A DNA stretch of 63,955 nucleotides, filler included, from Stramenopiles sp. TOSAG23-6 (GCA_900128565.1; 7 parts of 7 records of this genome joined end to end with filler, not necessarily neighbours in it), one strand, 5' to 3'; counted from the whole stretch's first letter, positions 10,297 to 62,583 are shown. Program-made: numbers and translations. Notes: generated by a model not told the origin, from the sequence alone.

Positions 10297-10349
10297 ATGT
10301 ATTTTGGAAAAATATTTCAAAAAAAATCTAAAAAAAATTGTTAGGTACA

Positions 10350-10449
10350 NNNNNNNNNNNNNNNNNNNNNNNNNNNNNNNNNNNNNNNNNNNNTTAATTA
10401 ATTAANNNNNNNNNNNNNNNNNNNNNNNNNNNNNNNNNNNNNNNNNNNN
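10350..10449. other. Artificial contig linker N-TTAATTAATTAA-N (also ~20840, 31267, 41691, 52110, 62528)
   Basis: Six-frame stop linker embedded in Ns, spaced ~10.42-10.45 kb with decreasing intervals, as expected for size-sorted contigs. Confidence 0.95.
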
Positions 10450-10522: not shown

Positions 10523-11802
10523 ATGTATGACAGTAATTTTTCAGGAGACCGTCTAATGTGGCCTCTATTTATTGTCCTAATTTTTACTTTAGGTGTAGTA
10601 TTCCTCACATTTGTTGCTACCTCGCGCACATGGATATCGCTGAGCTTAGTGGCTCTAACTATGACGATAACAATTTTCCACCATATTGTAAGCTGTGTAT
10701 CATGCAACACGCCTGGATTTCATTTCCAAAAAAGTATTGGAAATGTATTACATATGCAAGTTCAGAAAACAATGTGTGATACTTCCTCTTCGACGAATAG
10801 TGACGTATTCCTCTTCCTACATGGCCTGCTTGCATCCGGGCGATTCTGGAAAAACACAGTCAAACATCTCCTTAAAAAATGTGAATCTTCGTGTGTCTGT
10901 CTCACACCTGATCTTCTCGGTTTTGGCAAATCTCCTTATCCAAGTTCTAAAGCACGATATACTTGTGATGCCATGGTTCAAAGCGTGTTGGCTAGACTAC
11001 GCTTATATAACACTTCTAGTGGCAACAATAAAGGAAATGTCAGACGTCTACACATTGTTGGTCATAGCTTAGGTGCAGTCATTGCTACGGAAATTGCAGC
11101 ATCACTTTCTAAAAAAGAGCTTTGTGGCTTCAAGCTAGTCTCTCTTACTTGTATTAGTATGCCATTTTTTTCATCAGAAGCTGAAGCAAGGAAGGAGATA
11201 CGACGATGTACCCCGGTTCAAAATTACTTTCTAGAATGGCCAATTTCAACATATATTCTCTGTAGCATTTTTTGTCAACAGAGATGGCTATGGAGGTTAC
11301 CTCTACGAGCTATTGTCTTTTTAACTGGCTCATTTATTCCAGCACTGAGTCTATCATCCGAAATAGTAGACGACTTCTTTCTGCACTCATGTATGTTTTA
11401 TTTTTTTTCAAATTCGAATTGTTTTTTTCGTACGAAATTTTGTACCTAACGATTTTTTTTCAAATATTTTTCAAAAATACATACTATTCAGCACGATATT
11501 GTATGGAACAATGTGTAGTTGGTCACACTCTTCATTATGCAGCACAAAAGTTAAAAAAACATAAGCTCGCAGTCTCTGTACTACATGGATCTATTGATGG
11601 TAGTGTCAATGTCTCACATGGTCGAGAATTTGCAGAACTTGTTGGAGGTGCATTTATTGAAGTCGATGGTATCGGACATCTTTGTGGTTCGGATAAAGGT
11701 GCTGGGCTAGAAGAATTGTGTGAAGTATTATTACTGCAAATGAGTCGCGGACATTCAGTCTGTACTAAAGAAACGTACATAAGTTGTATAAATACAAAAT
11801 AA
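10523..11802 (+). CDS. Alpha/beta hydrolase with N-terminal TM segments, 2 exons
   Basis: LFLHGLL, PDLLGFGKS, GHSLG nucleophile elbow, HGSIDG and GIGH. Intron 11391-11482 (GT..AT). Confidence 0.85.
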
Positions 11803-20795: not shown

Positions 20796-20895
20796 NNNNN
20801 NNNNNNNNNNNNNNNNNNNNNNNNNNNNNNNNNNNNNNNTTAATTAATTAANNNNNNNNNNNNNNNNNNNNNNNNNNNNNNNNNNNNNNNNNNNN

Positions 20896-26914: not shown

Positions 26915-29128
26915 TTATTGTATCGTACATTTATATTTTCTTCGAAATTTTTGTAATTTCGAAGGTTTCTTTTTTTTTTTTTCAAAATTTCTTTTTCCGA
27001 GTCGTTTAGCTTCGATTGCATCAATTTCACGTTGTTGTGCTTCTTTATCAAAAGGAATACCTCTCTGTTCTGCAATGAAATACCCAACTCCCCCAGTATC
27101 TTCATATAATTGCCATTCTCCTTCGTACCCTTTTCTAATTAAATTATGATGTATTGTGAAAAAAATCAAAAAATTAATTCGTTAGGTACAAAATGTGGTA
27201 CGAAAAAAAAATCAAAATTCATGATTAAAACGTATACCTTTGAGTCTCTTTGATTCAGCCCACATTCGCATTTGTTGAGTGTTGTATGGATCATTTTGAA
27301 GACAATACACACCGTAATCTATATAATACCAACGAGTCTCTTTATCTTTTACATCAAATGGGGCATGACCTAAACTTTCCCTTTCAACCCAGATGGATGA
27401 TGAAAAAATATTTCTGAAAAAAAATCGTTAGGTACAAAATTGAGTACGAAAACAAAACAATAATAATTTCACAATGAAAATGTACTCACCACGTCGGCCT
27501 TTACGAATTAGACATTTTTTATTTAATACCCGATTCTGTCGGAGCATTTCAATATCAAATGTCTTTAAAGGTCCTTTCACTAGTTCACGATTTTTTTGAT
27601 CAAGTAGAAACCAAACAGTATAAGCTACTTTCCGCCCTTCTAATTGATCAAAATCTATTTCTGATTTTTTTGTAAGATCTGGATTCGAAGGCCAAATCCA
27701 AACTTCGTTAAAGCCTTCCTTTGATAACGGTGCAACGCCAGAAGTTATCATGCATCGATCTTCATGGGAAAGTCGGACAAGGAGGACCCCTCCTGGACAC
27801 CCAACATCATATATATGAAGAAGTTCTTTACTAATGCGTGCCCAAATTTTAACCTTTCCATCTTGACCTGCACTTACAATACTTTCATCATTCCGAGGAA
27901 TGGTTACATCATAAATTATACCATCATGTGCCTTTTCCCAGATATGTTTTGCTTCAAGTGTTGATTTAATACCAGACATTAATTTTCGTTTCATTTCTTT
28001 ATAATTTGTATCCCAAAGGATCAACTTGGAATCGGCTCCTCCAGTAGCAATGACATTCATATCCCAGCTCATGCAGACCCCATGAACACCACCAGAATGT
28101 TTTTTGAATGTGTGTAGCATATCATAAGAAACAGTCCATTCTTCTTCATTTTCTGGTTCATCTTGATCTTTCCGAACTTCAAAATCCCACATTTTTAATG
28201 TGTTGTCATAAGATCCTGTGAGGAGTTTTGTATTATCGGGAGTCCATGCCATTCTCATGACGCCACTATTATGAGCACGCTTAATATCATGCACTAACTC
28301 TTTTTCCAAAACACTCCAAATTCGAATGGACCAATCTGTTGCTCCACTGACAAGGTGTCGATGATCTGGTGTAAAAGTTAGACAACTAATTTTGTTACTA
28401 TGACCTTTGAGAGTTCCATGGAGCTCTAGTTTTGATATGTTCCAAATTTTAATTTCCGATCCTCCCGACGAAGCAGCATAAGAATTATTTCGGCTAAACG
28501 CAACAGCTCCTATAGGTTCTTTATGGCCACCTTTGATTCTATCAAAACCAATTACATAGGAAGCTTCAAACTTTTGAGTGTAAGAGTCATATTGAAAGCT
28601 ATAAATTTGAACACTTTTATCCTCAGAACCAGTTACAATTTGTGTACTATCGGAATTTATATCTAGCGTTACCACAGGCTTATTATTATTTGCAATGTGA
28701 CTATGCTTTTCAGTATAATCATGAGGACAAGAGTGACATCCTTCATGATTCCAGTGCTTTACTTTTCCATTATAATACACTGGCTTTGCTGCTTTTCTAG
28801 TGGCAGCAGACAAAGGAGATAGATTTTCCTCTGGAATTACTTTTGTTTCTTTAAAAAATTTATCGTGAATTCTTTCATTGATTTTCTCCGATATGTTTTG
28901 AACCATTAATTGGATAGTACCACCAGCTAGATCTTCCTCGGTCATTTTTCGTGCTTTTCCAGCCATAGCAATCTCATTTTGCATCCAGTCTGGCTGCTGA
29001 TGTTTACTCTGTTCAATACGAGAGCCGAATTTTTCTCCAGTCTTATTTTTTTTTCTTTGTATTTCTCGAGCTTTGATTCTTTGAGCATGTGTCAATATAC
29101 GCCCGCCACGCCTTACCTCGCGAGGCAT
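26915..29128 (-). CDS. WD40-repeat protein with two C-terminal GYF-like repeats, 3 exons
   Basis: Multiple GH...WD repeats. Two aligned 25-aa units (P...LIRKG..G[DE]W) restored by removing introns ~27395-27485 and 27149-27235. Confidence 0.8.
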
Positions 29129-31132: not shown

Positions 31133-31322
31133 TGTATGTTTTATTTTTTTTCAAATTGGAATTTTGTTTCGTACGAAATTTTGTACCTAACAAATTTAAG
31201 TTTTTTTTTTTGAAATATTTTTNNNNNNNNNNNNNNNNNNNNNNNNNNNNNNNNNNNNNNNNNNNNTTAATTAATTAANNNNNNNNNNNNNNNNNNNNNN
31301 NNNNNNNNNNNNNNNNNNNNNN

Positions 31323-32704
31323 TTGACCTTTCTGAGCTCTATCATGACCAATAAATGAAACATTTGCAGTAGTTGATTTTTCACTTGGTAAACCTAAATA
31401 AGCAGCAATGGCTTGCTTTGAAATATCTTTTCTTTGAGCACATCCTCCAAAACCTCCTTCTATTGGTACAAAACTATTTGAATGTTTTGATGACGTCATA
31501 GAAAAGGAAGAATATTGACCAGAACTTGATTGAACAGCTTTTTTTGGTAGTGAAGCTCCTAATGAATTAATCTGTTTTAAAATTGAATCTCTACGACTTG
31601 TACTAAATGTATACGACGGTGCTTTTTTTATTCTTGAATTATATTGAGAATTCAGTATTTTATTATGATCTACAGAATTATTTGTAAAACGAACAACCGA
31701 TTTTTGTTCTTTCATTGGACAAAACTGCTTTTGTATAGCATCTCTTTTCTCTTTTCCAAATGTTACACTAGAAATATTTCGTATTTTTGAATTATGTTTT
31801 GTATAAAATGTTTTATTGTAATCTATATTTATTGGATCATCACTCAAATCACGTGGTAAACATTTATTGTGAAGAATATTTCTTTTTTTGTTTTGTTTTT
31901 TTAATTACCATAAAAAAAAGTGACCGAAAAACAAAAAATGTAACTATAAAAAAACAAAAAATAATTTTGAAATGAAAATGTACATGCACCCAATTCATTA
32001 TACCGTTTAAGTATAGAGTCTCTATTTGTCGTATTAAATACTGTATTTGGTATATTTCGATATTTAGAATTGTGTTTGGTACGAAACACTTTTTGATAAT
32101 TTATTGAATCATNGACAAGAATATTTTTTGGTGTTTGTTTCAGCCCCGTTGCAACTTTTTTCCACATTTCTCGACTTGAAGATCCAAAATCAAAACTAGG
32201 AGGTCGACTACATTTAGAATTTGCATTGAATCCGGGTCTAGCAGCAGATGTATTTGTACTATACATACTATAATCACGTGGTAAGTATGCGTTAAGAGGA
32301 TTACTCAACTTGAGATTTTGATCTCTTGTAGAATGACCAAAATGTACTGATGGAGGCTTAGTAAAACGAGAATCAACATCTAATGATGGTGCAGATGAAG
32401 AACTATCTACATATTGACTACAGTCACGTGGTAAAGACGCATTTAATTCATTTGATTGTAAGTAAATGTCATCTCTTTTTGCTTTTCCAAATGTTACCGA
32501 TGGAATTCCACAATATTTTGAATCTGCATCTAAACTTGGTCTTGGTGCAGCTGTTACTGGACGAGACGAATGATCTTGAGATAGCTGAAGACCTGTGAAA
32601 CCTGTTGCTAACTTTTGGCACGTTTCACGACTCGCACATCCAAATTTCATTCTACTAATGTTTGATAAGGCACTTGAGTGACTAAAAGATTTTTGACACC
32701 ACAC
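31323..32704 (-). CDS. Repeat protein with PS(x)FG(x)3RD units, resembling SHIPPO/ODF3-type axonemal proteins
   Basis: Repeated PSVTFGKAKRD / PSVHFGHSTRD / PSFDFGSSSRE ... N(A/E)L(N/G)AxLPRD. Intron 31862-31983 (GT..AT) restores ACLPRD. Confidence 0.55.
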
Positions 32705-32918
32705 AAGTGAAAGGCAGTTTCATTTGTACCAGGGTACCCGGGACACGCAATTTTGTCAGCCTAAACCTAACAGGTCTGTCTGTCAATTATATATATTTAT
32801 CTCTGTCTGCCTTCATAAAATCAAAAACAACGAGAATTAGTAAAATTCTATACTTGACATAAAATAATTGAGCATCACGATTCAATAAAATTAAAGAGTC
32901 ATTTATTACTTTTACAAT

Positions 32919-33959
32919 TTATGGTTCTGTAGCACCTGCATCAATAAGTGCTTGCACAGTAACTGTATGACCTCCCTCTACAGCCCACATCAATGCAGTC
33001 TTTCCAGCATTATCTTCAATATCAAGAATAGCACCTGCAGCAATAAGTGCTTGTAAAATATCTGTACGACCCCAATATGCAGCCTGCATCAATGCAGTCC
33101 GTCCATCATTATCTTGAATATTAAGATTAGCACCTGCATCAATAAGTGCTTCTGCAATATCTGTACGACCATTATATGCAACCCATATCAATGCAGTCCA
33201 TCCATTATTTTGAGTATTAAGATCAGCATGTGCAGCAATAAGTGTTTGTACAATATCTGTATGACCATCAAATGCAGCCCATATCAATGCAGTATATCCA
33301 TTAATATCCTTAATATCAGCATCAACACCTATTGCTAGATATGTTTTCAATATACGTGCATTTTCATAGCGTACAATATTATTTCTCTCAGCGTCAAAGT
33401 GTGGTATTGCATCCTTATTAATACCATTATTGTCGCAATATTCATCCAAACGTTCGTTTTTCTGCTCAATCGATAATTTACGAAACGCCGCACTTTTAAC
33501 TTTGTGTTGGTATCTATTGATATCATAATCACTAGCACCTATAGCTTTCATTGTATCAATAACAAAAGGCACGTAAGCGTTGTTCAGCCAGGCTGGGTTG
33601 AAATAGTTCCTCTCCGTGTATAAGTGTGGTGGTTCTTTCAATCCTGCAAACTGAAATATATGCGTCATAGCGGCAGGCGCAGAATTTCCCCTGAGTCCAT
33701 GTTGTATACTTAGTAGAGCAGCATGTTGTTGTGATGACAAATATTGATTAAATACATTGTTTTGCTTATCCCACAAAGAGTTGCGCCACGCAGCTTGTTT
33801 AGGTACAATGTTTCGTTGTTCGTGTGCCGTTGGACTCTCTGCTACGGGCGGTTGACCTGTGCGCATCGGCGCAGTGTTCAATGGCGTCGAAGCGTGATTC
33901 ATATGCCATAGAACTGACAAAATACCAATAATGGCCAGTACAAAGAACTTATATAACAT
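32919..33959 (-). CDS. Ankyrin-repeat protein with signal peptide/anchor, intronless
   Basis: Four regular repeats G.TALIWAA..G.TDIV..LI.AGA.LN. Confidence 0.9.
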   Translation of the reverse strand: MLYKFFVLAIIGILSVLWHMNHASTPLNTAPMRTGQPPVAESPTAHEQRNIVPKQAAWRNSLWDKQNNVFNQYLSSQQHAALLSIQHGLRGNSAPAAMTHIFQFAGLKEPPHLYTERNYFNPAWLNNAYVPFVIDTMKAIGASDYDINRYQHKVKSAAFRKLSIEQKNERLDEYCDNNGINKDAIPHFDAERNNIVRYENARILKTYLAIGVDADIKDINGYTALIWAAFDGHTDIVQTLIAAHADLNTQNNGWTALIWVAYNGRTDIAEALIDAGANLNIQDNDGRTALMQAAYWGRTDILQALIAAGAILDIEDNAGKTALMWAVEGGHTVTVQALIDAGATEP

Positions 33960-34231
33960 GATGATGATGGATGCAACTCTTGAAGTGATAAATTGAAAGT
34001 GAAATATTCCAGAGGGTATCGCGGAATTTCGAGATTTTGCGAATTCTTTGACTGACTCTTTTTTATTGAATCAGATTTTCCAAATTTTTTTGTACTAGCA
34101 TTTTTGTAATATGTCACAGAGACAGTCACTTCGTCGAACAACCAATAAAATAAACAAGAGGTGCTGTTGTTTTGATTTAAGAAACAAGTTTCAGGATTTG
34201 ATTATATTGTAACTATTGCAATTACCCAACG

Positions 34232-36602
34232 ATGGAAGAATCTACGTTGAATAGTAAAGGTGAAGAGGAAGAAGTTGTATCCCCAAAAACTTTGAACACA
34301 CCACAGTTGATTACAACCCAAGAGAAAGCTATTGAAGAAAAAGCGGTGTCGAATATTGATGTATCAAGATCGTCTTCTACGAAGGAATCAGCCGCTGAAG
34401 CTAATATACATCCTCCTGTACCCCCACCAAGAAAAGTCGAGTCTTTGTGTGTTGAAGAGAAAAGTCAACAAGAGGATCAACCAGAGCAAAAGAAACATGA
34501 TCAACCAGAGCAAAAGAAACATGATCAACCAGAGAAAAGTCAACAAGAGGATCAACCAGAGAAAAGTCAACAAGAGGATCAACCAGATAAAAGTCAACAA
34601 GAGGATCAACCAGATAAAAGTCAACAAGAGGATCAACCAGAGCAAAGTCAACAAGAGGATCAACCAGAGCAACAGCAAGATGAACAACCAAAGCAACAGC
34701 AACATGATCAACCAGAACAGCAACAGTATTATCATCCAGAGCAAAAACAACCAAGCGCCCCCCCTCGCAATGAATCTTTACGTGCATCTGGTGATTTTAC
34801 TCACAAATATCAAAAATATTACGACATATTGGACCGGGCACGTTCAGGAAATATTGAGTTAGAAGATATTTCTTCCCATCGTGTTTTGTATAGAAATGGT
34901 ACAACTTTACAAGGATTACCCATTATTGTATTTTGTCCTTCGATACTTCCAGAACATTTTTTTGAGAAAAGTGTTCAAGGTCGAGCTCATCGACGTCGAT
35001 TACTTGCTTATTTTGTTGGTTGTCTGTATGTTTTATTTTTTTTCAAATTTCAATTTTATTTTTTTTGAAAAATTTGTACCTAACAATTTTTTTTTGAAAT
35101 ATTTTCCAAAATACCTAGATCAGTTGGTATCAAATAATTATGTCGTTATTTATTTACATACACATATGAAATGGTTTAATAATAATATGTTTGGATGGTT
35201 AAAACAAGCATATACAATATTTCCACGAACCTACAAGAAGAATTTAAAAGCTTTGTGTGTAGTCCATCCTACACGAATTCTTAAACTTTTTTTTACATTT
35301 TGTCGTCCTTTCATTTCATCTAAATTTTGGAAAAAATTATATTATTTTGATAAAATTCAAGATTTACAATGGATGATGAAACCTGTTCAAGTGATATTAC
35401 CTGATTTTGTACATAATTATGATAGAGAACTTGCATTTAAAAGAACAAAACAAAATTGGAAATCAAAAAGTGGCGCCGCAATGAAGGGATTATTTACAAA
35501 ATTTTCACCGTCAAAAAACACGAAAAATACGAAAAATCATCGAAATGTAAATAATATTGTACATGGCACAAATCACAAAAACAATAATTTGTCAAGAAGA
35601 AACGCAAACTCGAATCAAAGTTTTGAACCACCTCATCCAAAGACTCAAATTTTTGGTGTATCTTTGGATTCTTTGGCCAGACGTATTCAAGAAAAACACG
35701 AAATACAAGAAAATCACGAAATACATTTTTCATCATGTTCGAATTCAAAAACAAAGAATTCTATACCACTTGTTATTAAAGCATTTATTAATTTCCTTCG
35801 AGAGAATGCACATGTAGAACATATATTTCGTGTTCCTGCAAATTCACGATTATTAATATCAACAACAAACATGATTAATATTGGTCAAAAACCTGATTTT
35901 TTAAAACCATTTTATCAAAGTATTAAAGATCATCATTTAAATAAAAGATATTTAAATGGAGATTTAAATGGAGATTTAAATGGAGATCTAAATGAGAAAA
36001 GTAAAATGGAAAATAGTGAAAGTATTAGCAGTAATGTCAGTCTTGTGGCTTCCTTATTTAAACAATTTATACGCTTATTACCCAAACCAATTATAACGTA
36101 TTCTGTATACAAAACTTTGCTTGATGAATTTGAAAAAAATGAAAAAAATCCAGATGAAAAAAATTCATTTGAAAAAAAAAATATTGAATACTTAACAAAT
36201 TTATGTACACATAATAATCCATCAATGCACTACACACACAGACAATTTTTATTTGTACTTATTTCTTTACTTAAAGATATTTCAACCTTGGAAGAATTTA
36301 ATCATATGGGGGTAAAAAATCTATCAATAGTGTTTGCACCAACATTATTTCCTACAACTCTTGGATCTGATAACAATGAAGTGTTATTAGCTACAAGAAT
36401 GGGCGTTTCTATTACAACAATATTAATTACACATTTTGATGACATTTTCCAAAATTTTGAAAATGACGATTTTGAAAATGAGTTTGATGAATTTGTTAGT
36501 GAAATTACTACTACTTCAAAAGAACATAATCCAAGACATAGTGGAGAATTTTATGATGATGATGTTGAAGATACTGATGAAAGTGAAGAAGTTGCATTAT
36601 AA
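34232..36602 (+). CDS. BCH/CRAL-TRIO + RhoGAP protein (ARHGAP1/p50RhoGAP-like), 2 exons
   Basis: YVVIYLH...YKKNLKALCVVHP (BCH); IFGVSL, HIFRVPA, VASLFKQFIRLLPKPI, NHMGVKNLSIVFAPTL (RhoGAP). Intron 35026-35116 (GT..CT). Confidence 0.9.
34455..34745 (+). repeat. Coding tandem repeat (21-27-nt units; KSQQEDQPE / QKKHDQPE)
   Basis: Direct repeats aaagtcaacaagaggatcaaccaga are visible. Confidence 0.9.
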
Positions 36603-36794
36603 ATAATTTAATTATTTAAAAAAAAATACAAAAGATGAAATAAGATGAAATAAATACAAAATTTGCAAATAGTGTATAATTTATTCTTCAACATGTATAT
36701 AAAATTTTTGTGTTTGAAAATTGCTACACAAAAACGTACAAACAAAATAAATCAGTTACAATACTAAGGAAGAGATAAGTTGTTCTTGACACAC

Positions 36795-37830
36795 TCAACA
36801 TGGACAACTATTATCATTTGTTTGTTGCACGTTAACCATATCAACAGTACTAGGAATGTAAATTTCATCTTGGGACTCTCTGTGTATGTGAAATATATGT
36901 AAAATAAATAATAATCAATAAGGGTTTCTTTTGTATTGAATGAATAGGAACAAATTTCTTTTTGGTTTTTTTTCAGAAAATATTTTTTCAAATAATTTAT
37001 AAAAGTACTACTTACTGTCTATTCTGTGAAAAGTATTCAAATGTTGTAGAGGGTGAGTAACAATTTTGCAAAAAAAAATAAAAAACAACATGTATAATTT
37101 GGATGAAAAACAAAATCAACAAAAACAAATTACTTTAAAGCAAGATGAGCAATACGCTGAAAAGCTTGTTCCACGTTATGATTCATTTTCGCAGATGTTT
37201 CGAAATGATCGAGAGGTTTTGGTTTCTCCCGACACCAGCTAAGTGCTTTACGCTTTTGAACACGTCGTTCAGCTTCAGGCTTGTCCACTTTGTTTCCCAA
37301 GACAATAAAAGGAAAATTATCAGGATCAGGTGGCATAGCTTGAATAAGAAATTCCTCACGCCAGCTGTCAAGTTGCTCAAATGATTTCGAATCAGTAACG
37401 TCATATGCTAAGACACATGCATCTGCACCACGATAAAATGCAACACCAAGACTTTGGAAGCGTTCCTGACCGGCAGTATCCCAAATTTGCATTGTGACAA
37501 GTTTCTCTTCAAGCATCACTTCCTTGGTCAGAAAGTCTGCACCAATGGTTGCCTTGTACTGGTTCGTAAATTTACGGTTAACATACTGGTTCATAAGAGA
37601 TGTCTTACCGACAATGGTTTATAGGAAATATATAAATAAAAAATGATTAGTTTGAGTATTAGTAAACTAGAAATAGATACTTGATACAAGATGTGTGGAA
37701 AGGTTTTTTGTTTAAAGGCAAACAAAGTTTCAAATAGAAAATATTGCCATATAAAATTTCGACATATTGTAACATACCCACTATCACCTAGAATGATGAC
37801 CTTAAGGAGAACCTTTTTTCTATGAGACAT
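36795..37830 (-). CDS. RAB7: Rab7 GTPase; 4 exons, including a 3-nt micro-exon
   Basis: [26 protein letters not shown]...[21 protein letters not shown]...ETSAK...ALKQE...SCPC*. Introns 37614-37777 (GT..AT), 37019-37133 and 36880-37015. Confidence 0.96.
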
Positions 37831-38144
37831 TGTGGGGGAAATTTCTAAATCTCAGTAGTAGATGAGAGAGGAGGAAACACAGACAGACTCTTCTTCTTTT
37901 TTGTTGTTCTCGTTTGTGTGTGGTCGTGGTCGGCAATTTTTCTTGNGTCATCCTNAAAAAAAGAACAAACCTGCTTTTGTATACTAAGCGGAGAGGAGGA
38001 GCGCAAGAAAAAAAATACTACAGAGGACATTGTAGTGCCATTGTGTAGTGTACTATTTATTATTGTGTGATGTTTTTGTTTCCTTTCTCTCAAAAAAAAC
38101 AGCTTTCACACTGATTCACAAGGTCTATAGATTGACCGAGTACA

Positions 38145-41435: not shown

Positions 41436-41746
41436 CTTCTATTGTATTTGTGATCATGCGATGATTGAATAGACAGTTTTTGAACAAGGATATTTCCTTA
41501 GTGTAAAGCGTTTTTTGACATTTATGTGAAACGGTCAATTTTGTTCTCAGCTGCGCGCGCCGGATTTCGTGCGATCGAGCAGCTCAAAATGTTCTTCTCT
41601 TTTCTTTTAGAACTCTCTTCGTTCTTTTAAAAAAATTTAAAAAAATNNNNNNNNNNNNNNNNNNNNNNNNNNNNNNNNNNNNNNNNNNNNTTAATTAATT
41701 AANNNNNNNNNNNNNNNNNNNNNNNNNNNNNNNNNNNNNNNNNNNN

Positions 41747-44127: not shown

Positions 44128-46032
44128 ATGCAATCTACAAAACATCACATCATAGGTGTTGAACCCATGGATGAGAGTTTGCGTCATGATATGTATTCGA
44201 AAGTTGAAGAGAATAAATTACGAGAATCTCTTCTTGAACCTGTTTGCCTCGGATCTGGTCCTTTCTTATGTCGATGTAGTTCATGTTTTATTTTTGGCTT
44301 AGTAGTACCTATTTTAGTTTTTGTCTTCCTTTACTCCCGCCCAGATGAAGATTCTGAGACGGTACATGCCATTTCGCTATCCATTGTAATAGTTGGTTTA
44401 ATATTTGGTTTTGTTTTATTGTGTTCTGGAATTTTTCCAATTTTACTTAACTCTACACCTCCAAAACCTCCCCCACTTTATCCCTTATTGAGTCAACATC
44501 ATATTAGAAAACCTAAAAAGGTCTATGTTATAGTAAATCCAGCGGGTGGCAAGAAACAATCTCGAAAAATTTACAAAAGAAGTGTTGTACCAAAATTCTC
44601 TGAAGCAGGAATTGAACACAGCTTATTTGAAACTAAATATCCTGGCCATGCGAAGCAGTTATGTGCTACTTTACCTCTTTCTGGTTTTGATGCTATCATA
44701 ATCATTGGTGGTGATGGAACATTTCATGAATGTGTCAATGGCTTATTTTCGCGTAACGACGAAGAAACCCGGCCTGTCGGTTTGTTACCGGGAGGCTCTG
44801 GTAATTCCGTACTTACGGATTTTCATATACAAAATGATGTTAATGGAATTTTGGACAACATTATTTCCGGTCGCTTAGCAAATATTGATGCGATTAAAGT
44901 AACACATGGTACTTTACCACATCATACTAGATGGAGTATCAATGTTGTTGGTTATACTGCAGATCAGTGTATGTATGTTTTATTTTTTTTCAATTTTTTT
45001 GTCTAAAATTTTTTTTTTTGGTTTTCGTACGAAATTTTGTACCTAACAATTTTTTTTTTTTTTTTTTTGAAATATTTTTCCAAAATACATGTCTGGCGTA
45101 AATATTGATGTATGTTTTCACTTCACACAATCCATTGTTACCCCCTAACCCTAATAACCTTAATAACCTTAATAACCCTAATAACCCAAATAGTCTAGAT
45201 TGTACCATTTATTTTTTCCTACTAAATTTCATAAATAATATTTTTTTGACTAATTTTTTTTTCAAACCCTAACCCTAATCTTATTTTTTTACAATCTATG
45301 GATGGCGTTCACTACTTGGTACAGCTCGTTATGACGTTTGTGGTCTCTGGGGTTTACTTAAAGGACGTTCATCTGATGTTCAAGTTTGTTTTCATGATGA
45401 ATTTCATTTTTTTTTTTTTTTCATAGAATTTTTTTTTCATAGAAATTTTTTTTTTCATAGAAATTTTTTTTTTTCATAGAAATTTTTTTTTTCATAGAAA
45501 TTTTAATTTTTTTTTTTTTTTTCCACAGGTAGAAGTTGATGGTAAATTATATAAAAGAGGTGTTGGGGCAATTTTTATCAATGCAACTCAGCATTTTGGT
45601 AAAGAAATGTGGGCGTGTCCGAAAGCCTTGCTAGATGATGGAAAGATGAATATCGCTTGTATGTTGAAAAAAAAAAATTTTTTTTTCGATTTTTTTTTTT
45701 TTCGATTTTTTTTTTTTCGATTTTTTTTTTCCGAGATAATTTCATACCTAACCTAAAGAGTCAAATATTTTTGAAATATTTTTTATACTATATGTGTCAA
45801 TGGATCTCGTGCTGAAATTTTACGGATTTTTAATTTACTAAAATCTGGACGACATACCACATTAGTATCAAATGCTACAGCGTCTCATATTTTGTTGAAA
45901 CTTCCTGTTGAGACAGGTTTGTTCAATATAGATGGTGAGGTTGTCGTGTTCCACCAACACGAAATCTCACTAGAAATACATCCTGGTAAAATCGAGTTCT
46001 ATGTTCCTGATCGTAATCCTACAGCTTATTAG
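44128..46032 (+). CDS. Sphingosine-kinase / DAGK-catalytic-domain lipid kinase with two N-terminal TMs, 5 exons
   Basis: IVNPAGG, ETKYPGHA, IGGDGTFHECVNG, LPGGSGN, LGTARY, LDDGKM, FNIDGE. Includes a 19-nt exon at 45091-45109. Confidence 0.88.
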
Positions 46033-48902: not shown

Positions 48903-49636
48903 CATAGTAAATTTTGTACCTAATGATTATTTTTACTCCAAAACAATCAAAACAATATTTTTTTACAGTATATCCTTGCATAAAGCAATTCTAGAAGGTT
49001 TTTCTACAATAATTGCAGTATTGTTATCTAATGAATATGTCAAAGTAAATGTAACAATGATGGCTCCATTGAAAATGAAGCTTAACCCTAACCCTAACCC
49101 TAACCTTGATCCATATCAGGAAAGTAAAAGAATTCGTGTTTCTCCTTTATATATCGCAACATTTAACAATGATGTAGATACGGTCCGTAGACTACTTTTC
49201 AAGAATGCGAATGAAAATCTTGCCCATGAAGTATTTTCAATTTAAATATTTTTCATACGAAATTTTGTACCTAACAAAAAACTTTTTTTTTTTCAATTTT
49301 TTTCAATTTCAATTTTTTTCAATTTTTTTTTTTGTAGTACAATTTCATACCAAAGGCAAACAAAACAAACAAAATTTGAAATATTGTCCAACAACACATG
49401 GAACGATTCATTACACGCCACCTTGTCCTTTTGAACTAGCGACTAAAAAAAAATATACTGAAATTGTAAAACTTTTGGAAACAGTACCGGGTATCCGATA
49501 TGTACAAAAAAAAAAACTTGACCACAAAAATGACAATGACAAATTTGTTCCAACGACACATCCACTTGATAGCAGTTTTTCAACTGGTACTGCTGAGGCA
49601 TTGGATAGCATTTTTTTCGATGGTATAGATTGGTGA
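48015..49636 (+). CDS. Ankyrin-repeat protein, 3 exons
   Basis: GANVN, GYTPLF, SPLYFA. TPLHKA restored across intron 48805-48973 (GT..AT). Confidence 0.8.
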
Positions 49637-50913: not shown

Positions 50914-51770
50914 ATGTCAGCTACTTCAGAGATCGTTCGAGGCATTCCTGTACACTTTCCCTTTCGCCCATATACCGTACAAAAGCTATACATGGAAAAA
51001 CTAATCGAAGCTCTTCAAACTGGCAAAAATGCTCTTCTAGAAAGTCCAACAGGTACCGGAAAGACTTTATCTTTACTATGTGCCTCGTTGGCATGGCGTC
51101 GTGCATACTTATCACTACATGAAGTATGTCGGCGTGAACGTAAATATCAATATATGCCTCGTAGTACAACTCAACTAAAGCCACACGTTCTTCGACAGAT
51201 GAGAAACGAATTATTGTCTCAGGTATTTGGTACACAATGGTATGATAATCCTAAAGTAATACAGCTATTATCTGATTTATATGGTCCAGAATGGACACCA
51301 AATAGAAACAAAGGTGGATTTGATATAAAGGGTAGTCATAAATCCATAAAAGGCATTGGAGTATATAAATATCTTTCGGACGACATTGATCGATCAGTGA
51401 GGAACCCTAACCCTAACCCTAACAATAGTAAAAGTCTTGGTGCAACTGGTCCAAATCCAGATTGGTTGCGAGGTTCTACAGGTTCAAACATGCATGAACG
51501 TACACGAAATCCACCCCAAATTATTTACGCATCTCGAGTATGTCTTTCCTTTAAAAAAAGATTGATTTCAAATTCAGTTCAAAAATTTTAAAAATTTTAA
51601 AAATTTGGATTTTTTTTCATAGTAAATTTTGTATCTAACAAAAATATAAATTTTTTTTTGAAATATTTTTCATACTAAGGACTCACAGTCAATTAACACA
51701 AGTTGTAAAGGAATTAAAAAATTCAAAATATAAACCTAGAATTGCTGTACTTGGATCACGACAACAATTA
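50914..51770 (+). CDS. XPD-family Fe-S DNA helicase (RTEL1/FANCJ-like), N-terminal part only
   Basis: [52 protein letters not shown]. Intron 51538-51680. Confidence 0.9.
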
Positions 51771-52164
51771 TGTCTGTTTTATTTATTTTTTTATTTTTTA
51801 CAAAATTTTATTTTTTTTTTTTCATACGAAATTTTGTACCTAACAATTTTTTTTTTTTTTTTTTTTCACATCAAATAATCGCCCACACATTAGATAAATT
51901 TATCATCACTTCCAAAACATTTGCTGGTTCGATTACGGATGAGCTTTGTTTTGGTATCGAAAATAAAGTCATTGGGAGTGATGGTAGAGAGCAAATAATC
52001 ACGGTTGAAATGGATGGTTTTATGTTCGTTTCATAATTAAGTTTTTTTTTTTTTTTTTTTTTTTTNNNNNNNNNNNNNNNNNNNNNNNNNNNNNNNNNNN
52101 NNNNNNNNNTTAATTAATTAANNNNNNNNNNNNNNNNNNNNNNNNNNNNNNNNNNNNNNNNNNN

Positions 52165-52764
52165 NCAAAGAAAGCTGCAAAAAACGCCGCGAATAAGGAA
52201 GCTGCTAAAGGGACAGGAAATGACCCAAAGAATGATTCAAAGAAAGCTGCAAAAAACGCCGCGAATAAGGAAACTGACAAAGGGACAGGAAACGACCCAA
52301 ATAATGATCCAAAGAAAGCTGCAAAAAACGCCGCGAATAAGGAAGCTGCTAAAGGGACAGGAAACGACCCAAAGAATGATTCAAAGAAAGCTGCAAAAAA
52401 CGATGCGGATAAGAAAGCTGCTAAAGGGACAGGAAATGGCCCAAAGAATGGAACAAAAGAAAATGGCGAAGGGGCAGGAAAAGTAGTGAAAGTTAAAGGA
52501 CCTACGGAGGCAGCAGCAAAAGTGACTGCCAAAAAGGTAGCTGAAAACAAAAAAAAAGAAGTTGTCACACACATAGCATCCGTGGGTAGTAGTAAGGCAC
52601 CAGCAGAAAAAAATGATATTTTTATCATAACTGGTGATAATGCTTCTACCAGGAGTAAACCCACCACATTGAACCCGAATAATGACACAATGTCATTGAA
52701 CCCAAATTATGCTACATCGCCACCACTTATTCATTTAGGTGTTCCTGGTACCGGTACACCCTAA
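52165..52764 (+). CDS. Fragment of a Lys/Ala/Asn-rich protein with ~60-nt tandem repeats
   Basis: Four to five units KKAAKNAANKEAAKGTGNDPKNDS; 5' end lies in the gap. Confidence 0.55.
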   Translation, partial: XKKAAKNAANKEAAKGTGNDPKNDSKKAAKNAANKETDKGTGNDPNNDPKKAAKNAANKEAAKGTGNDPKNDSKKAAKNDADKKAAKGTGNGPKNGTKENGEGAGKVVKVKGPTEAAAKVTAKKVAENKKKEVVTHIASVGSSKAPAEKNDIFIITGDNASTRSKPTTLNPNNDTMSLNPNYATSPPLIHLGVPGTGTP

Positions 52765-53075: not shown

Positions 53076-54691
53076 CTATCCATCATTTGAACTATACACT
53101 GGTTGTTTTGGTAATCTATAGTCTTCTCTCTTTATAGCACGATCAACATGAACAGTTTGTGAAAAAGGTTGGTAAGATACTTGAAAAGGTCGACCAAGGG
53201 AATCGGCGAAGCGTCTCATTTGTGTTTTAGCATCACTCAAAGTGTCTGCTACAAAATATGTTGGTTGGTATGTTGTAATAGGATATTCTTGCATTCCAGC
53301 AACATCTGGATCCCAAGGTAAATATGTAGGAAAGTTATCTTCACCTCCAGCTGGACGCAACGCCGAGCAGGCATATTCCAATTCACCAAATGAGGATAAT
53401 AAACCTGCTCCATACGCTTTCAATGCCCCATATATTGTGAAAAAATATTTTTTTTTTTTCGTAAAAAAACAGTTTGTCAGGTACAAAACTTGGTACAAAA
53501 CAAATAAATTCGATTTTTCAATTTTGAAAATGTACATCTTGACGACATAAACCAAATTCAACAGAAAACCAGTAGCACGTTGCTAAACGTTTAATATCAG
53601 CATCACTAGCTCCCAAAGATGCAAGTCCAATTTCATGAGAAAAATCAGCAAAATCAGGATCTGCAAACATTGGAGCATGCCCAAGTAACTCATGACAAAT
53701 ATCAGGCTCTGGCGTATATAAAGGAGTTGAATGGTGCCTAATATATTGGGTAGAGAAGAAAACACGAAATGCAAGACCATTGAGAAAGTCGCGTGCTGAT
53801 AGTAATCCACCAACGGGTCTCAATTGAAATCCTGTACAGTCACGTAGAAAATCACTGTTTTGTGAAAATTTAAAACAATATATATTTTTCCGTTAGGTAC
53901 AAAATTTCGTATGAAAAAAAATCGAAATACTTTTTGTTGATGAAAACGGACCTGATATCTTGTACTTGAGGAATGTTATCTGAAGCATATCCACAATTTT
54001 TTTCCATTAATGGAAGGATGTAGTTAAACTGTTTGCATGCATAATGAGGGAGAAGTTTTCCTAATCTATCATAAACAACACCCCATGTTGCAATTTCATC
54101 TTCATTATAATCTACATAAGGTATTCTACCACCTTCACGAAAACTAAAGCCAGTAGAGTAATTCACAATTTCTTTTCGACGTTGACGATATTTTTCATCT
54201 GTGAAACCAGGATGGTCTGCTTCAAGATCAACACCAGCATCAAGCGTTTCATTGGCAAATTGATCAAGATCTTCCAGTTTTCGTGGGAACCATGGTACAA
54301 GTTGAGGTTCTTCTTCTTCTATTTTGGGACAGACTCTTTTCAAGTCATTTAGCAACTGCTCTGCACGGGAAGGTTCCTGAACTCTAAAGTCTACGTGAAA
54401 GTTGTAAGATGCAGAGTTTGCGATCTTTGTAGGTCGCGACTCTATTCGAGTCATTGTGATTGAATTAGAACGAAAAATTTTTAATACCTCTTCCAATGCA
54501 CCAGGCTTGTTCGCAGAAGTTTGGAAAACAATACTTCTCTTTGAACTTTCGTTGGGTTTAGAGAATCTTTGTTGTGCTGAACTTCCTCCACGTGCAGAGC
54601 TGCCAGACTTTTTCGTATGGCCGCTACATAGGGAACGCGTAAAAGTATTGTACAATCGCATTGCACGGAATCGTTTAAAGATCATCGACAT
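53076..54691 (-). CDS. PAH: Phenylalanine 4-hydroxylase (ACT + biopterin-dependent aromatic amino-acid hydroxylase), 3 exons
   Basis: [65 protein letters not shown]. Introns 53855-53951 (GT..AG) and 53430-53535 (GT..AT). Confidence 0.95.
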
Positions 54692-58225: not shown

Positions 58226-60439
58226 TTATTTGCCATTTGTCATTAGTAATAAGACAGCCCTAGTTCTATCGGGTATAGGTTTCCGTGCACAAACTATAAA
58301 AAATGCATTCGGTGGAAGTTTACTTTGAACAAGTCGAATTTTTGCGGCCAGACTTTTTGTTTTCTCATTATATTTAGAAGATTGACTACAAAAGTTACTT
58401 GAAGAGATACTACTACTTTCATGAGTAAAACTAGAATTATTAGACTGACCACCAGACAAGCAACATGATATGAACCGTGGGACAGCGACTGTACTTAAAT
58501 TATTTTGTTGTAACATTTTTAATGTATACTGAATTGTTGATTGGTCGTTAGTACATTCTTGAATTCTTGCTGGCGATTCTTTATGAATTTTTAGATCACA
58601 CTTATTACTTGATATAACTAAGCATTCAGAAGAACTACCAGAGGTAACATTGGAACTACTTATTACTTTTGGTTTAAATATCATTTCGCATAAGGACATT
58701 TTTGGCTTATTCGTTCCATTGGCAGAACCGAAAGAGGAACCATACTTCATTTTCTTCTTAACTAAGTCTAGAGCCGCTATTGCATCTTCTGAACTACAGT
58801 GTCCCAGAGAACCATGATTTTGTATTATTCGATCTAAATGCGTTTTACTTAGCCATAAAAAGTGAAGAAATATTTGAGTTTTTTTTTTTGTTAGGTATGA
58901 AATTTACTATAAAAAAAATTTGAAAAAATTTTGAAAAAAAAAATCAAACATACAACGGAGACTACTTTTGTATTGACCTAATCGAGCATGAGGATAAATG
59001 ATGGCAGTGTCAATCACTTTATTATGAACTAAATGTAAGGCTTTGAAGTCACATTCTAGAGAGTGGCCAATAATAATTGTACTTGCAGTTAGAATTGGTG
59101 ATTTTTCTGATTTTGTTGTAGTTAGAATTGGTGATTTTTCTGATTTTGTTGTAGCTGCTGCTATTGGTTTTTGTGATGTCTCTGCAATTTGTCCCGTCAG
59201 TTGAAATTGTACATCTTTCAAAGTTGTTGAAACACCACTCAGCATTTCTTTTGTAATTCCACTATATTGCGTCAAATAATCAGTTATGGTATGTTGTGGT
59301 AAAAAAAATTCCAAAGTGTAAAAAAATCGTTAGGTACAATATTTCGTACGAAAAAATAAAACAAAAAATGAAAATTAAAAAAGTACATGTTGTGGTATTA
59401 CATAAGTATCATATATAACATTTCCATACCAATCTACTACAGTAACACGAGCTAACTCATGGCCATGATCAGTCATAACCATCTCGCAATCTAATGCTAC
59501 TATTTTGTCAAAATTAAATGTATCATCCGAAAGATCTTTCTTAACTGTTGTTTTAGATAAATCATCAACTTCTTGAACTGTACTGACATAACCATGTGGA
59601 ATTTTAGGCACATTATTCTTAGTGTATTTAAAAGTAGGATATTCATTCTCTTTAAGTTGTTTATCCGTCATGAGAAAATTTGACGCCGGGAATGAATATT
59701 CAAGACTAACTTTCAACTTTGCTCTAAGTTTCTCTTTTTCACAAGTTTTCGCTTCACAAATAAGTTTTTGCATTACTTCTTTTTTCTTTTGTTTTTGTTC
59801 ACGTCGTAATAAAGCTGCTTTTGCCATTTCAGATTGATATAATTTCTCTATTGATTTCAATTTCTGTTTATCAATAACACACAGTATCGAAGAAGAGAGT
59901 CGTGGAATGTTCTTGTCACTAGTATTACGCCGCTTCAAACGAAGGTTCAGTGCAGAGCAAGTAGGTAAATTATGCAGTGCATAATCCCAATTTTTTCCAA
60001 TTGATGAAGCCCAACTGGATATCTCGTCTCCACCATCTTCAATTGTCATTACTACAATAGTGCTTAGTATAGGAATATTTTTCGCAATGATCCACTTTGG
60101 CATTTGACCAAGTGAGGCTGTGAGAAGCCACTTTAACAAGTTCTGTAGGTCATGCGTAGATATCGTCCACGGTTCTAAATGATTACCCTTTATAAGCATT
60201 TTCCGCTTTAATTCAAAATTAAATCCAATGAGTGGTGTGCCCGCAGGAGAGGTTGGAATACCGTTGGAACGGAAATAGTCAGTACTTTGTAATATAGCTA
60301 TGTCTTTTGTTTTCGTCGTTCCATCGCGAAATCTTTTGGCTGCACGCTTTGCTTTAGCTGATGGGTTCGGGGGCTCTTTACGCTTTAGCAAAACTGGCTC
60401 ATCACAGAATCGAACACCATCAGATGGTTTAGTGGTCAT
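58226..60439 (-). CDS. DEDDh RNA exonuclease (REXO1/Rex1-like), 3 exons
   Basis: ALDCEMV, ELARVTVVD, DYLTQYSGIT, IIGHSLECDF, VIDT, SLRWLS, GHCSSEDA. Introns 59291-59386 and ~58855-58953, both GT..AT. Confidence 0.92.
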
Positions 60440-61691: not shown

Positions 61692-62583
61692 CCGTCTTGC
61701 TCTTGGACATACTGGTGGTGTTTTTGGTGCAATTGTAACTCTATTATCCAGAAATGTTATTCGGTGTCGTTTTATTCATTGGTTGTTTACGTAAAATTTG
61801 TAACTTTTTATGATAAAACAATCTGAAAAATATGAAATTTTCTTTTTTCTTAATCCTTTGTGGATGTGTTTCTTCTTTTCGTAGAAGTTTTTTCATACTT
61901 GCTCAACCTAATGATGCATGTTTGTCTATATTGAGTCCCCTCCTTTTGACAAAACTTGTTTTTGTCAAATCTTGCTGTACACTATGCCTGAAGATTTTAT
62001 GTAAAACTTCCTTTCATTTTTTGTGTGATTTCATTTAGTTATACTTATTTTCGTTTAAAGAAATAATACTTATTCAGGATTTTTCTTAATATAGATCTTT
62101 TACTTCACTGAACAAAAACTGTTAAATCAATAAAAGGAACCTACATCTCCCGGTACAATAAACTAAAAATATGTTTTAAGTTTTTTATCGTGTTTCTTCT
62201 GGAGCTCCACTATACCCATGCGTCAAACAAATCGACGTGACGTTTTCGTCGTTTTCGTGTTGTGCCACGCTTTTGACAGATTTTGATGAAATTTCATAGC
62301 AAATTTTGTATGTAATTTCATTTTTTGTTTTTTTTCATAAGAAAATTTGTAGGTAAAAATATTTCAAATTATTTTTGTCTTCAAATTAAATAAAAATGTT
62401 CCATTAGGGTTAATTTTAAGACAAAAATAATTTGAAATATTTTTACCTACAAATTTTCTTATGAAAAAAAAATAAAAAATGAANNNNNNNNNNNNNNNNN
62501 NNNNNNNNNNNNNNNNNNNNNNNNNNNTTAATTAATTAANNNNNNNNNNNNNNNNNNNNNNNNNNNNNNNNNNNNNNNNNNNN

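Follow-up and report, generated by a model that had tools for sequence, protein, structure and literature searches.

AG at intron ends is among the most constant signals of eukaryotic genes, and it is checked in the second catalytic step of splicing, where proofreading involves pairing between the first and last bases of the intron. Can a spliceosome accept a different last base, and can it do so in an old intron of an essential gene? This question is raised by a Rab7 gene on the minus strand (positions 36795–37830) of a 63,955-nucleotide (nt) stretch of DNA from Stramenopiles sp. TOSAG23-6, the whole of which was analysed and is hereafter referred to as the window. Here we report that the first intron of this gene (intron 1; 37614–37777, minus strand; 164 nt, phase 2, GC content 0.24), which begins with GTATGTTA and ends with AAACCAT, is excised exactly at GT..AT, as confirmed by assembled RNA. 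We consider it probable that intron 1 is a U2-type intron at an ancestral position (phase 2, in the P-loop codon G18) that carries T for G as its last base, and that the spliceosome of this lineage accepts either A-G or A-T at intron ends.

Four public runs were mapped onto positions 32114–37945: the polyadenylated-RNA (polyA) metatranscriptomes X5, X6 and X13, from three studies, and the seawater DNA run X3, from a fourth. The evidence consists of assembled contigs, not raw reads, mapped at 92% likeness, where 95% is advised for metagenomes. RNA contigs of X6 and X13, from two of the studies, join 37613 to 37778 and skip exactly 164 nt. The ends of this joint read AT..AC on the plus strand, which is GT..AT on the coding strand; its 'both' count is 0, and sliding is impossible. 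The X6 contig (370 nt) continues for 68 nt past the joint with one other letter, the X13 contig (151 nt) continues for 19 nt with none, and the X5 contig (528 nt) stops exactly at 37613. Intron 1 is removed precisely from polyadenylated RNA at ..CCAT/T (the slash marking the splice junction). Within 32114–37945, RNA joints were found in Rab7 only; the neighbouring genes have no RNA contig cover, which is uninformative on their expression. The 3′ end of intron 1 reads AT, not AG, both in the record and in a 1,302-nt DNA contig of X3, which covers 37007–37945 with 5 differing bases over 939 nt and three indels, none of them within 37614–37777. Because the AT is identical in this independent DNA, it did not arise by misassembly of the source record.

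The reading frame leads to the same junction. Intron 1 divides the P-loop GDSGVGKT after coding nt 53, and the intact motif is obtained only through the 37778/37613 join. Sliding the cut by −2 gives GDSIVGKT and by −1 GDSVVGKT; a slide of +1 (TA..TT) also encodes GDSGVGKT, synonymously, and is ruled out by the RNA joint. When a script held the donor at 37777, each of the four AG candidates led to a stop codon or shifted the frame. The intron itself contains just two AGs, one ending at 37680, which is in frame but meets a stop at residue 22, and the other ending at 37667, which is out of frame; the AGs of early exon 2, ending at 37604 and 37586, are both out of frame. An earlier note on this DNA had placed the intron at these coordinates with this sequence, held its GT..AT register to be fixed (with GDSIVGKT as the product of the 2-nt slide) and called the nearest upstream AG out of frame. 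All of this proved exact, and no RNA with an AG at 37614–37615 was seen: the RNA contigs splice at AT.

The identity of the gene is clear from its exons. Exon 1 (37778–37830, minus strand) runs from the start codon at 37830–37828 to GAT AGT GG (coding nt 1–53), and 37778–37845 is covered by the X6 RNA contig. Exon 2 (37134–37613, minus strand; RNA contigs of X5, X6 and X13) begins with T GTC GGT AAG ACA at 37613, has a frame open for 160 residues and encodes the protein from V19 into the K180 codon, of which it holds the first two bases. Compared with solved structures, exon 2 scores E values of 1.6e-71 to 9e-67 with Rab7, from residue V19/V21 on, versus 2e-56 with Ypt7, 1e-46 with Rab9 and 1e-29 or weaker with the remaining Rabs. 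Exon 2 also matches the Pfam Ras family (E 2e-47), and the database matches of the protein carry the name Rab7. The last coding exon (36795–36879, minus strand) ends with ..DNSCPC and a stop, the CPC being a C-terminal CXC prenylation motif, and RNA contigs of X5 and X6 extend into this exon, covering 36803–36879. The closest proteins are P0003 (95% identical), P0004 (a public model of the same gene, whose database name bears a marine stramenopile (MAST)-3-type label), and then unnamed marine sequences, oomycetes and Bolidomonas. To judge from these protein likenesses, the host of the gene is a stramenopile. All public sequencing runs that contain the stretch are marine, and the window is AT-rich (GC about 25–41%).

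The Rab7 gene appears to use AG acceptors at its other introns. In the RNA contigs of X5 and X6, 37134 and 36879 are separated by three additional letters (TGT on the plus strand, ACA on the coding strand). Between these positions, AG/ACA/GTAAGT occurs at a single place, 37018–37016, flanked by ..GAATAG/ and /GTAAGT; by a rough estimate, the chance of that 7-mer within 254 nt is ~1%. The best reading is that introns 2 and 3 are both GT..AG introns around a 3-nt microexon. Intron 2 (37019–37133, minus strand; 115 nt, GTAATT..GAATAG) is supported by the RNA contigs of X5 and X6, and intron 3 (36880–37015, minus strand; 136 nt, GTAAGT..ACACAG) by RNA contigs together with the sequence. The putative microexon ACA (37016–37018, minus strand) would complete the codon AA/A and supply the CA of CAA, giving ..ALKQE... 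The 206-aa model aligns without a gap to P0003, with 187 of 206 residues identical, ALKQE included. We also considered a single intron ending in ..CACAT combined with a 3-nt indel polymorphism, which would give Rab7 two GT..AT introns. This is disfavoured, as the microexon explains the RNA without a mismatch to the record; the indel table of the X3 DNA shows none near 36880, and the indel reading retains a small but real chance. On the GT..AG reading of introns 2 and 3, AG acceptors are therefore in use in the Rab7 gene.

How old is the position of intron 1? Scanning metagenome contigs with a Rab7 alignment, with borders set by tblastn, gave 80 loci. Five of these (L066, L070, L071, L074 and L076) carry a GT..AG intron of 142–363 nt at the same phase-2 site, after the GG of codon 18 and before C/T GTC GGN AAG (C/T here denoting either base). 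In L068, whose match begins with residue 19 at the very start of the contig, only the 3′ half of such an intron is present. The proteins of L071 and L068 are 100% identical to Rab7 of Micromonas pusilla CCMP1545, those of L066, L070 and L074 have their nearest matches in the green lineage, and L076 belongs to a different, GC-rich eukaryote. These orthologous introns end in ..CAG/C or ..CAG/T, and intron 1 ends in ..CAT/T. For animals and land plants, support comes from protein models, not from gene structures: five over-long or isoform models (P0193, P0220, P0192, P0233 and P0006), from the four land plants Urochloa, Syzygium, Lathyrus and Brassica and from a fish, the sturgeon, break exactly before VGKT. 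Before VGKT, these models have R or S (AGN codons), which reading through ..AG plus the first exon base would produce. A different locus, L026, has an intron three codons upstream of the site. The available text of PMC3504004, on Rab intron positions, does not cover Rab7. Beside its P-loop intron, L076 (1333–2212) has an apparent second intron, between LDS and WRDEF of Rab7.

The window is also filled with one short repeated element, an introner, whose sense reading is GTATGTTTTA ... CGTACGAAATTTTGTACCTAAC ... TTTTTTCACAATACAT. A profile built from 21 full copies (nhmmer --max, E ≤ 10) gave 48 matches at E < 1e-3 in the 63,955 nt, the 21 training copies included, or about one per 1.3 kb; examples lie at 335–235, 21323–21214 and 43229–43130 on the minus strand and at 11391–11481 and 44973–45089 on the plus strand. 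Nearly all full-length copies examined lie within open reading frames (ORFs) in the sense orientation, and one frame of the element is stop-free, with ORF finders reading straight across it. The copies have a TACCTAAC branch box, a near-palindromic core and a CTAAC-type motif 32–59 nt from the 3′ end. Among the 21 aligned copies, 17 end in T and four in G, none in A or C, and 19 have A at −2; as terminal pairs, AT occurs 15 times, AG four times, and CT and GT once each. Cuts at the aligned ends leave at least 30 open codons on both sides in 18 of the 21 copies, versus 9.9 expected from neighbouring cuts (simulated P ~3e-5). The three misses are 44973, where the downstream exon is too short for assessment, 40541 and 27237. 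The last two exon bases equal the last two intron bases in 14 of 21 copies (12 AT/AT, one CT/CT and one AG/AG), a repeat that looks like a target duplication supplying the 3′ end of the introner.

Two introners in a phenylalanine-hydroxylase (PAH) gene, both on the minus strand, are placed by alignments to the Protein Data Bank (PDB). One, at 53430–53535 (GTACAT..ATATAT), follows an exon that ends in AT, and its cut slides by 2 with AG in no register; the other, at 53855–53951, is a GT..AG intron (GTCCGT..AAACAG) within ..VQDIS/DFLRD... For the AT/AT copies, two things favour GT..AT: the conserved hexamer matches a textbook donor, and the Rab7 intron leaves no ambiguity. The alternative, AT..AC, is less likely, since the GTATGT/GTACGT hexamer would then be without a role and copies with different exon ends would have to start with GA, TT or AG. 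At the introner of a WD40 gene (27485), where homology might have separated the two readings, the PDB matches are to generic WD40 repeats, at query residues 176–345 among the matches listed, far from the C-terminal junction. The earlier note had described the repeated introns as ending in AT, a premise that is ambiguous for many copies, given the end repeat of 14 of the 21.

Three further observations concern these elements. The copy at 27237–27150 (minus strand) has the aligned 5′ end ATACGT, and its frame fits only AT..AT or, shifted by 2, GT..AC, possibly a further non-canonical pair. In an exonuclease-like gene at ~59300–59400 (minus strand), the exon and intron ends carry a 10-nt direct repeat, ACCACAACAT, where 2–3 nt is usual, with AG available in no register; this repeat is similar to the 3′ end of the element itself, which hints at a target preference for like ends or at a shifted boundary. 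A joint in the X3 DNA, 35051→36967 (side 24), falls in an introner repeat and was disregarded.

Intron 1 might itself be a decayed introner, or an old intron whose 3′ part has been replaced. Its insertion would then be recent, the shared site a matter of chance and the AT merely the usual end of the element. In a window so densely populated, this idea draws on the GTATGTT start that intron 1 shares with the introners, on its 3′ end TTTCCTATAAACCAT, which loosely resembles the introner consensus TTTTTTCACAATACAT, on a 9-mer of the core, CGAAATTTT, near its 5′ end, on the placing by MAFFT of core-like stretches of Rab7 introns 2 and 3 on the introner core, and on the 83%-identical relative L001, which has no intron at the site. 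Against it, a search of 37614–37777 on the coding strand with the introner profile gave no match at E ≤ 10, and intron 1 has neither the palindromic core nor TACCTAAC. Its length, 164 nt, exceeds that of 19 of the 21 aligned copies (87–142 nt), and its ends (GG in the exon, AT in the intron) lack the 2-nt direct repeat present in 14 of 21 introners. Moreover, the same site and phase recur in green algae, in another eukaryote and at the boundaries of plant and fish models, for which chance is an unlikely explanation. We regard a decayed introner as unlikely; the shared 3′-end likeness, the 9-mer and the CTAAT motifs of intron 1, the nearer of which, at 33 nt, falls inside the introner range, may be general splicing signals of the host. 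The contention of the earlier note that intron 1 has no repeat core withstands the profile search, and its contention that the position is widely shared, which an absence of the intron from orthologues would have contradicted, is backed by the five loci, the partial sixth and the plant and fish models.

The signals of intron 1 also bear on its class. Its donor hexamer, GTATGT (37777–37772), is the U2 consensus, a T-rich tract is present, and two CTAAT motifs are candidate branch sites: one at 37646–37650 (minus strand; A at 37647), 33 nt before the 3′ end, and one within TTTACTAAT at 37658–37662 (minus strand; A at 37659), 45 nt before it. U12-type introns have the donor consensus RTATCCTT and the branch box TCCTTAAC, ~10–20 nt from the 3′ end. 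A minor-spliceosome intron could explain GT-AT, which is among the rare terminal pairs of that class, and intron 1 has a TTCCT.TAAAC stretch near its 3′ end, with an imperfect U12-branch-like TTCCTATAAAC ending 3 nt before that end. However, at positions +5 and +6 the donor GTATGTTA reads GT, not CC, and the TTCCT-like stretch would set the branch A just ~4–7 nt from the 3′ end, whereas the CTAAT motifs at 33 and 45 nt are of good U2 type and resemble those of the introners, a large family that has the same A-T end with the TACCTAAC branch box. Although GT-AT pairs make up 7 of the 66 non-canonical U12 introns tabulated in PMC1557818 and are spliced productively, we consider a U12-type intron very unlikely here. 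Scans of the window with Rfam (at the gathering threshold) and for tRNAs gave no match and no small nuclear RNA. A structure-dependent, non-conventional intron of the euglenid type is unsupported, given the canonical donor, the lack of stable end pairing and a minimum free energy of −24.2 kcal/mol versus −22.2 ± 3.3 for shuffled sequences (z −0.6). In the minimum-energy fold of 37604–37787 (minus strand), the end of exon 1, GAUAGUGG, pairs with CCAUUGUC across the 3′ junction, so that the exon ends meet; at this z, the pairing carries no weight.

Two simpler accounts would leave the splicing machinery out of the matter. A lone tolerated mutation, with an ordinary spliceosome using ..CAT/ inefficiently where no AG competes nearby and nothing special in machinery or genome, has a precedent in the conserved U2-type GT-AT intron of human and mouse DGCR2 (PMC1557818), and the use of AG elsewhere in the Rab7 gene, with just one non-introner case, is compatible with it. 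But 17 of the 21 introner copies in the same 64 kb end in T, after A or, in two copies, after another base, with agreeing frames; one AT-ending introner is pinned by homology with no AG in any register; and Rab7 is an essential housekeeping gene, the spliced form of which is assembled by three RNA runs. A lone mutation is on these grounds quite improbable. An artefact, whether an error at the acceptor or RNA from another organism or an intronless allele, is suggested by the draft nature of the window, with its many Ns and artificial linkers, and by the origin of the RNA in mixed seawater communities. Yet the record and the X3 contig both read AT, the RNA contigs match the exons with 0–1 other letters, and no X3 DNA contig has the joined form; we give an artefact next to no credence.

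We thus favour an old U2-type intron whose altered last base the host spliceosome accepts. The spliceosome of this lineage would take G or U as the last intron base, after A, and a G-to-T change in an old CAG acceptor would be tolerated or neutral, yielding CAT. Because U is accepted repeatedly at the last base in one genome, recognition appears to be relaxed; the relaxation could reside in U2AF-type factors, by analogy with the tunicate Fritillaria, or in core components. We infer the U2-type class, the branch sites, the AG-to-AT direction and the alteration of splicing factors. The earlier note had gone further, holding that the AG requirement was lost and that the machinery itself had changed. 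Its interpretation is largely upheld, with two corrections: the AG rule is relaxed and not lost, as Rab7 introns 2 and 3 (on their best reading) and one PAH introner end in AG, and a change in the machinery is inferred, not shown. In a broader version, the major spliceosome would have a rewritten 3′ rule (A, then G or U), with A-U as the majority acceptor genome-wide, and the rule would have been spread by introners before ancestral introns drifted. We put the odds of this at even. With a 2-nt AT target duplication as the source of its 3′ end, the introner would spread the rule, and, A-U once tolerated, ancestral introns such as a Rab7 intron as old as the last common ancestor of eukaryotes would drift from CAG to CAT.

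Several points weigh against these proposals. Intron 1 is the sole non-introner intron demonstrated to end in AT, and the other two introns of the gene, on their best reading, end in AG. The RNA evidence is thin, with one long anchor (68 nt) and another of 19 nt, under the caution limit of 30; it comes from contigs placed at the lower likeness, yet both contigs have 0–1 other letters. For the 12 AT/AT introner copies, GT..AT and AT..AC yield the same mRNA and fit equally, which leaves AT as a common acceptor unproven for them. All three Rab7 introns end in sequence loosely like the introner 3′ motif TTTYCA.A.A.A[GT], which could mean that they are old, decayed introners and not old introns. 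As to age, L001 (83% identical), in addition to lacking an intron here, has a GT..AG intron near the C terminus, and among 25 contigs of at least 3 kb, six have an intron at the site, 18 lack one there and one has an intron close by. Frequent loss from a shared ancestral position would explain this distribution most simply, and ancestry of the intron is likely, though not proven, for this lineage.

Comparison with known systems sets the case apart in several respects. In the tunicate Fritillaria borealis, non-canonical introns are linked to invasive elements, and non-AG 3′ ends are described as genome-wide and as processed by the major spliceosome, a change that is attributed there to altered factors of 3′ splice-site recognition, namely duplicated, divergent U2AF1 and U2AF2 (PMC13326754). 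The non-AG 3′ ends are common to both systems, but here the donor is the textbook GTATGT, only the last base varies (G/T), and the host is a stramenopile protist. Amoebophrya is reported to have more than 60% non-GT-AG introns, invasive introners, short direct repeats over intron boundaries and genes on which gene predictors fail (PMC7789003). It resembles the present system in being a marine protist with repeated, invasive introns and short boundary repeats. Its introns, however, are described there as lacking a clear dinucleotide signature and as having ends paired by inverted repeats of 8–20 nt, whereas here GT..AT dominates, with a canonical donor and a branch box, and the Rab7 intron shows no fold beyond that of its shuffles. 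In described introners whose 3′ site derives from a target duplication, the duplication supplies a canonical AG. The introner of the window is like these in carrying GTATGT and a 2-nt end repeat in 14 of 21 copies; it differs in that the duplication supplies mostly AT, and the Rab7 intron is neither an introner nor flanked by such a repeat. Mammalian GT-AT introns have the same termini, including the U2-type DGCR2 case with an optimal donor and a pyrimidine tract, but they are a handful among hundreds of thousands in the account of PMC1557818, whereas here the end recurs many times in 64 kb.

A literature search, which did not extend to supplements, found no publication on A-T acceptors or introners in MAST lineages. 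In the available text of the two MAST-3 genome papers, PMC5778133 and PMC12614181, the word 'splice' occurs in neither, although supplements could hold splice tables; 'intron' occurs in PMC5778133 only in method sentences and is absent from the text of PMC12614181. What is new here is that, in a stramenopile, a canonical donor goes together with a last base that is either G or T, and that RNA evidence extends this to an ancestral intron.

The clean removal of an ancestral, A-T-ending intron from an essential and highly conserved gene, together with the recurrence of that end in an invasive intron family, points to a natural system of relaxed last-base recognition with a canonical donor. Two questions thereby become open to testing: what factor determines the permitted last base, and whether intron gain driven by transposons can alter the splicing code of old introns. 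If true, the last-base rule (A, then G or U) would give protists a counterpart of the Fritillaria case that arose independently and left the donor rule intact, and current catalogues of genes, like claims that genes are lost, would be systematically distorted for such genomes. P0004, the public model of the gene, contains three errors: a forced GT..AG intron makes it read GDSGY/TSLMN, with the catalytic VGK lost; 11 switch II residues are cut out as a 33-nt pseudo-intron; and the microexon-dependent Q is missed. If P0004 is typical, gene counts, completeness scores and pseudogene reports of single-cell genomes would need splice-aware rework that allows A-T.

Some features of the window lie apart from these subjects. 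Six identical artificial joins, each consisting of 44 N, TTAATTAATTAA and 44 N (a six-frame stop spacer), recur every ~10.4 kb, at 10350–10449, 20796–20895, 31223–31322, 41647–41746, 52066–52165 and 62484–62583. The window is therefore a chain of ~10.3-kb pieces, and adjacency across the joins is not established. Internal (CCCTAA)3 runs at 49086–49103 and 51405–51422 were considered as telomeres and dismissed, as they lie within unique sequence far from the joins. An X3 DNA contig joins 32757 to 34013, skipping 1,255 nt with 11 other letters and removing most of an ankyrin-repeat ORF (32922–34070); this is either a natural structural variant or a mis-join in one assembly. Some of the joined pieces start or end within an introner, for example at 10349 and 31222.

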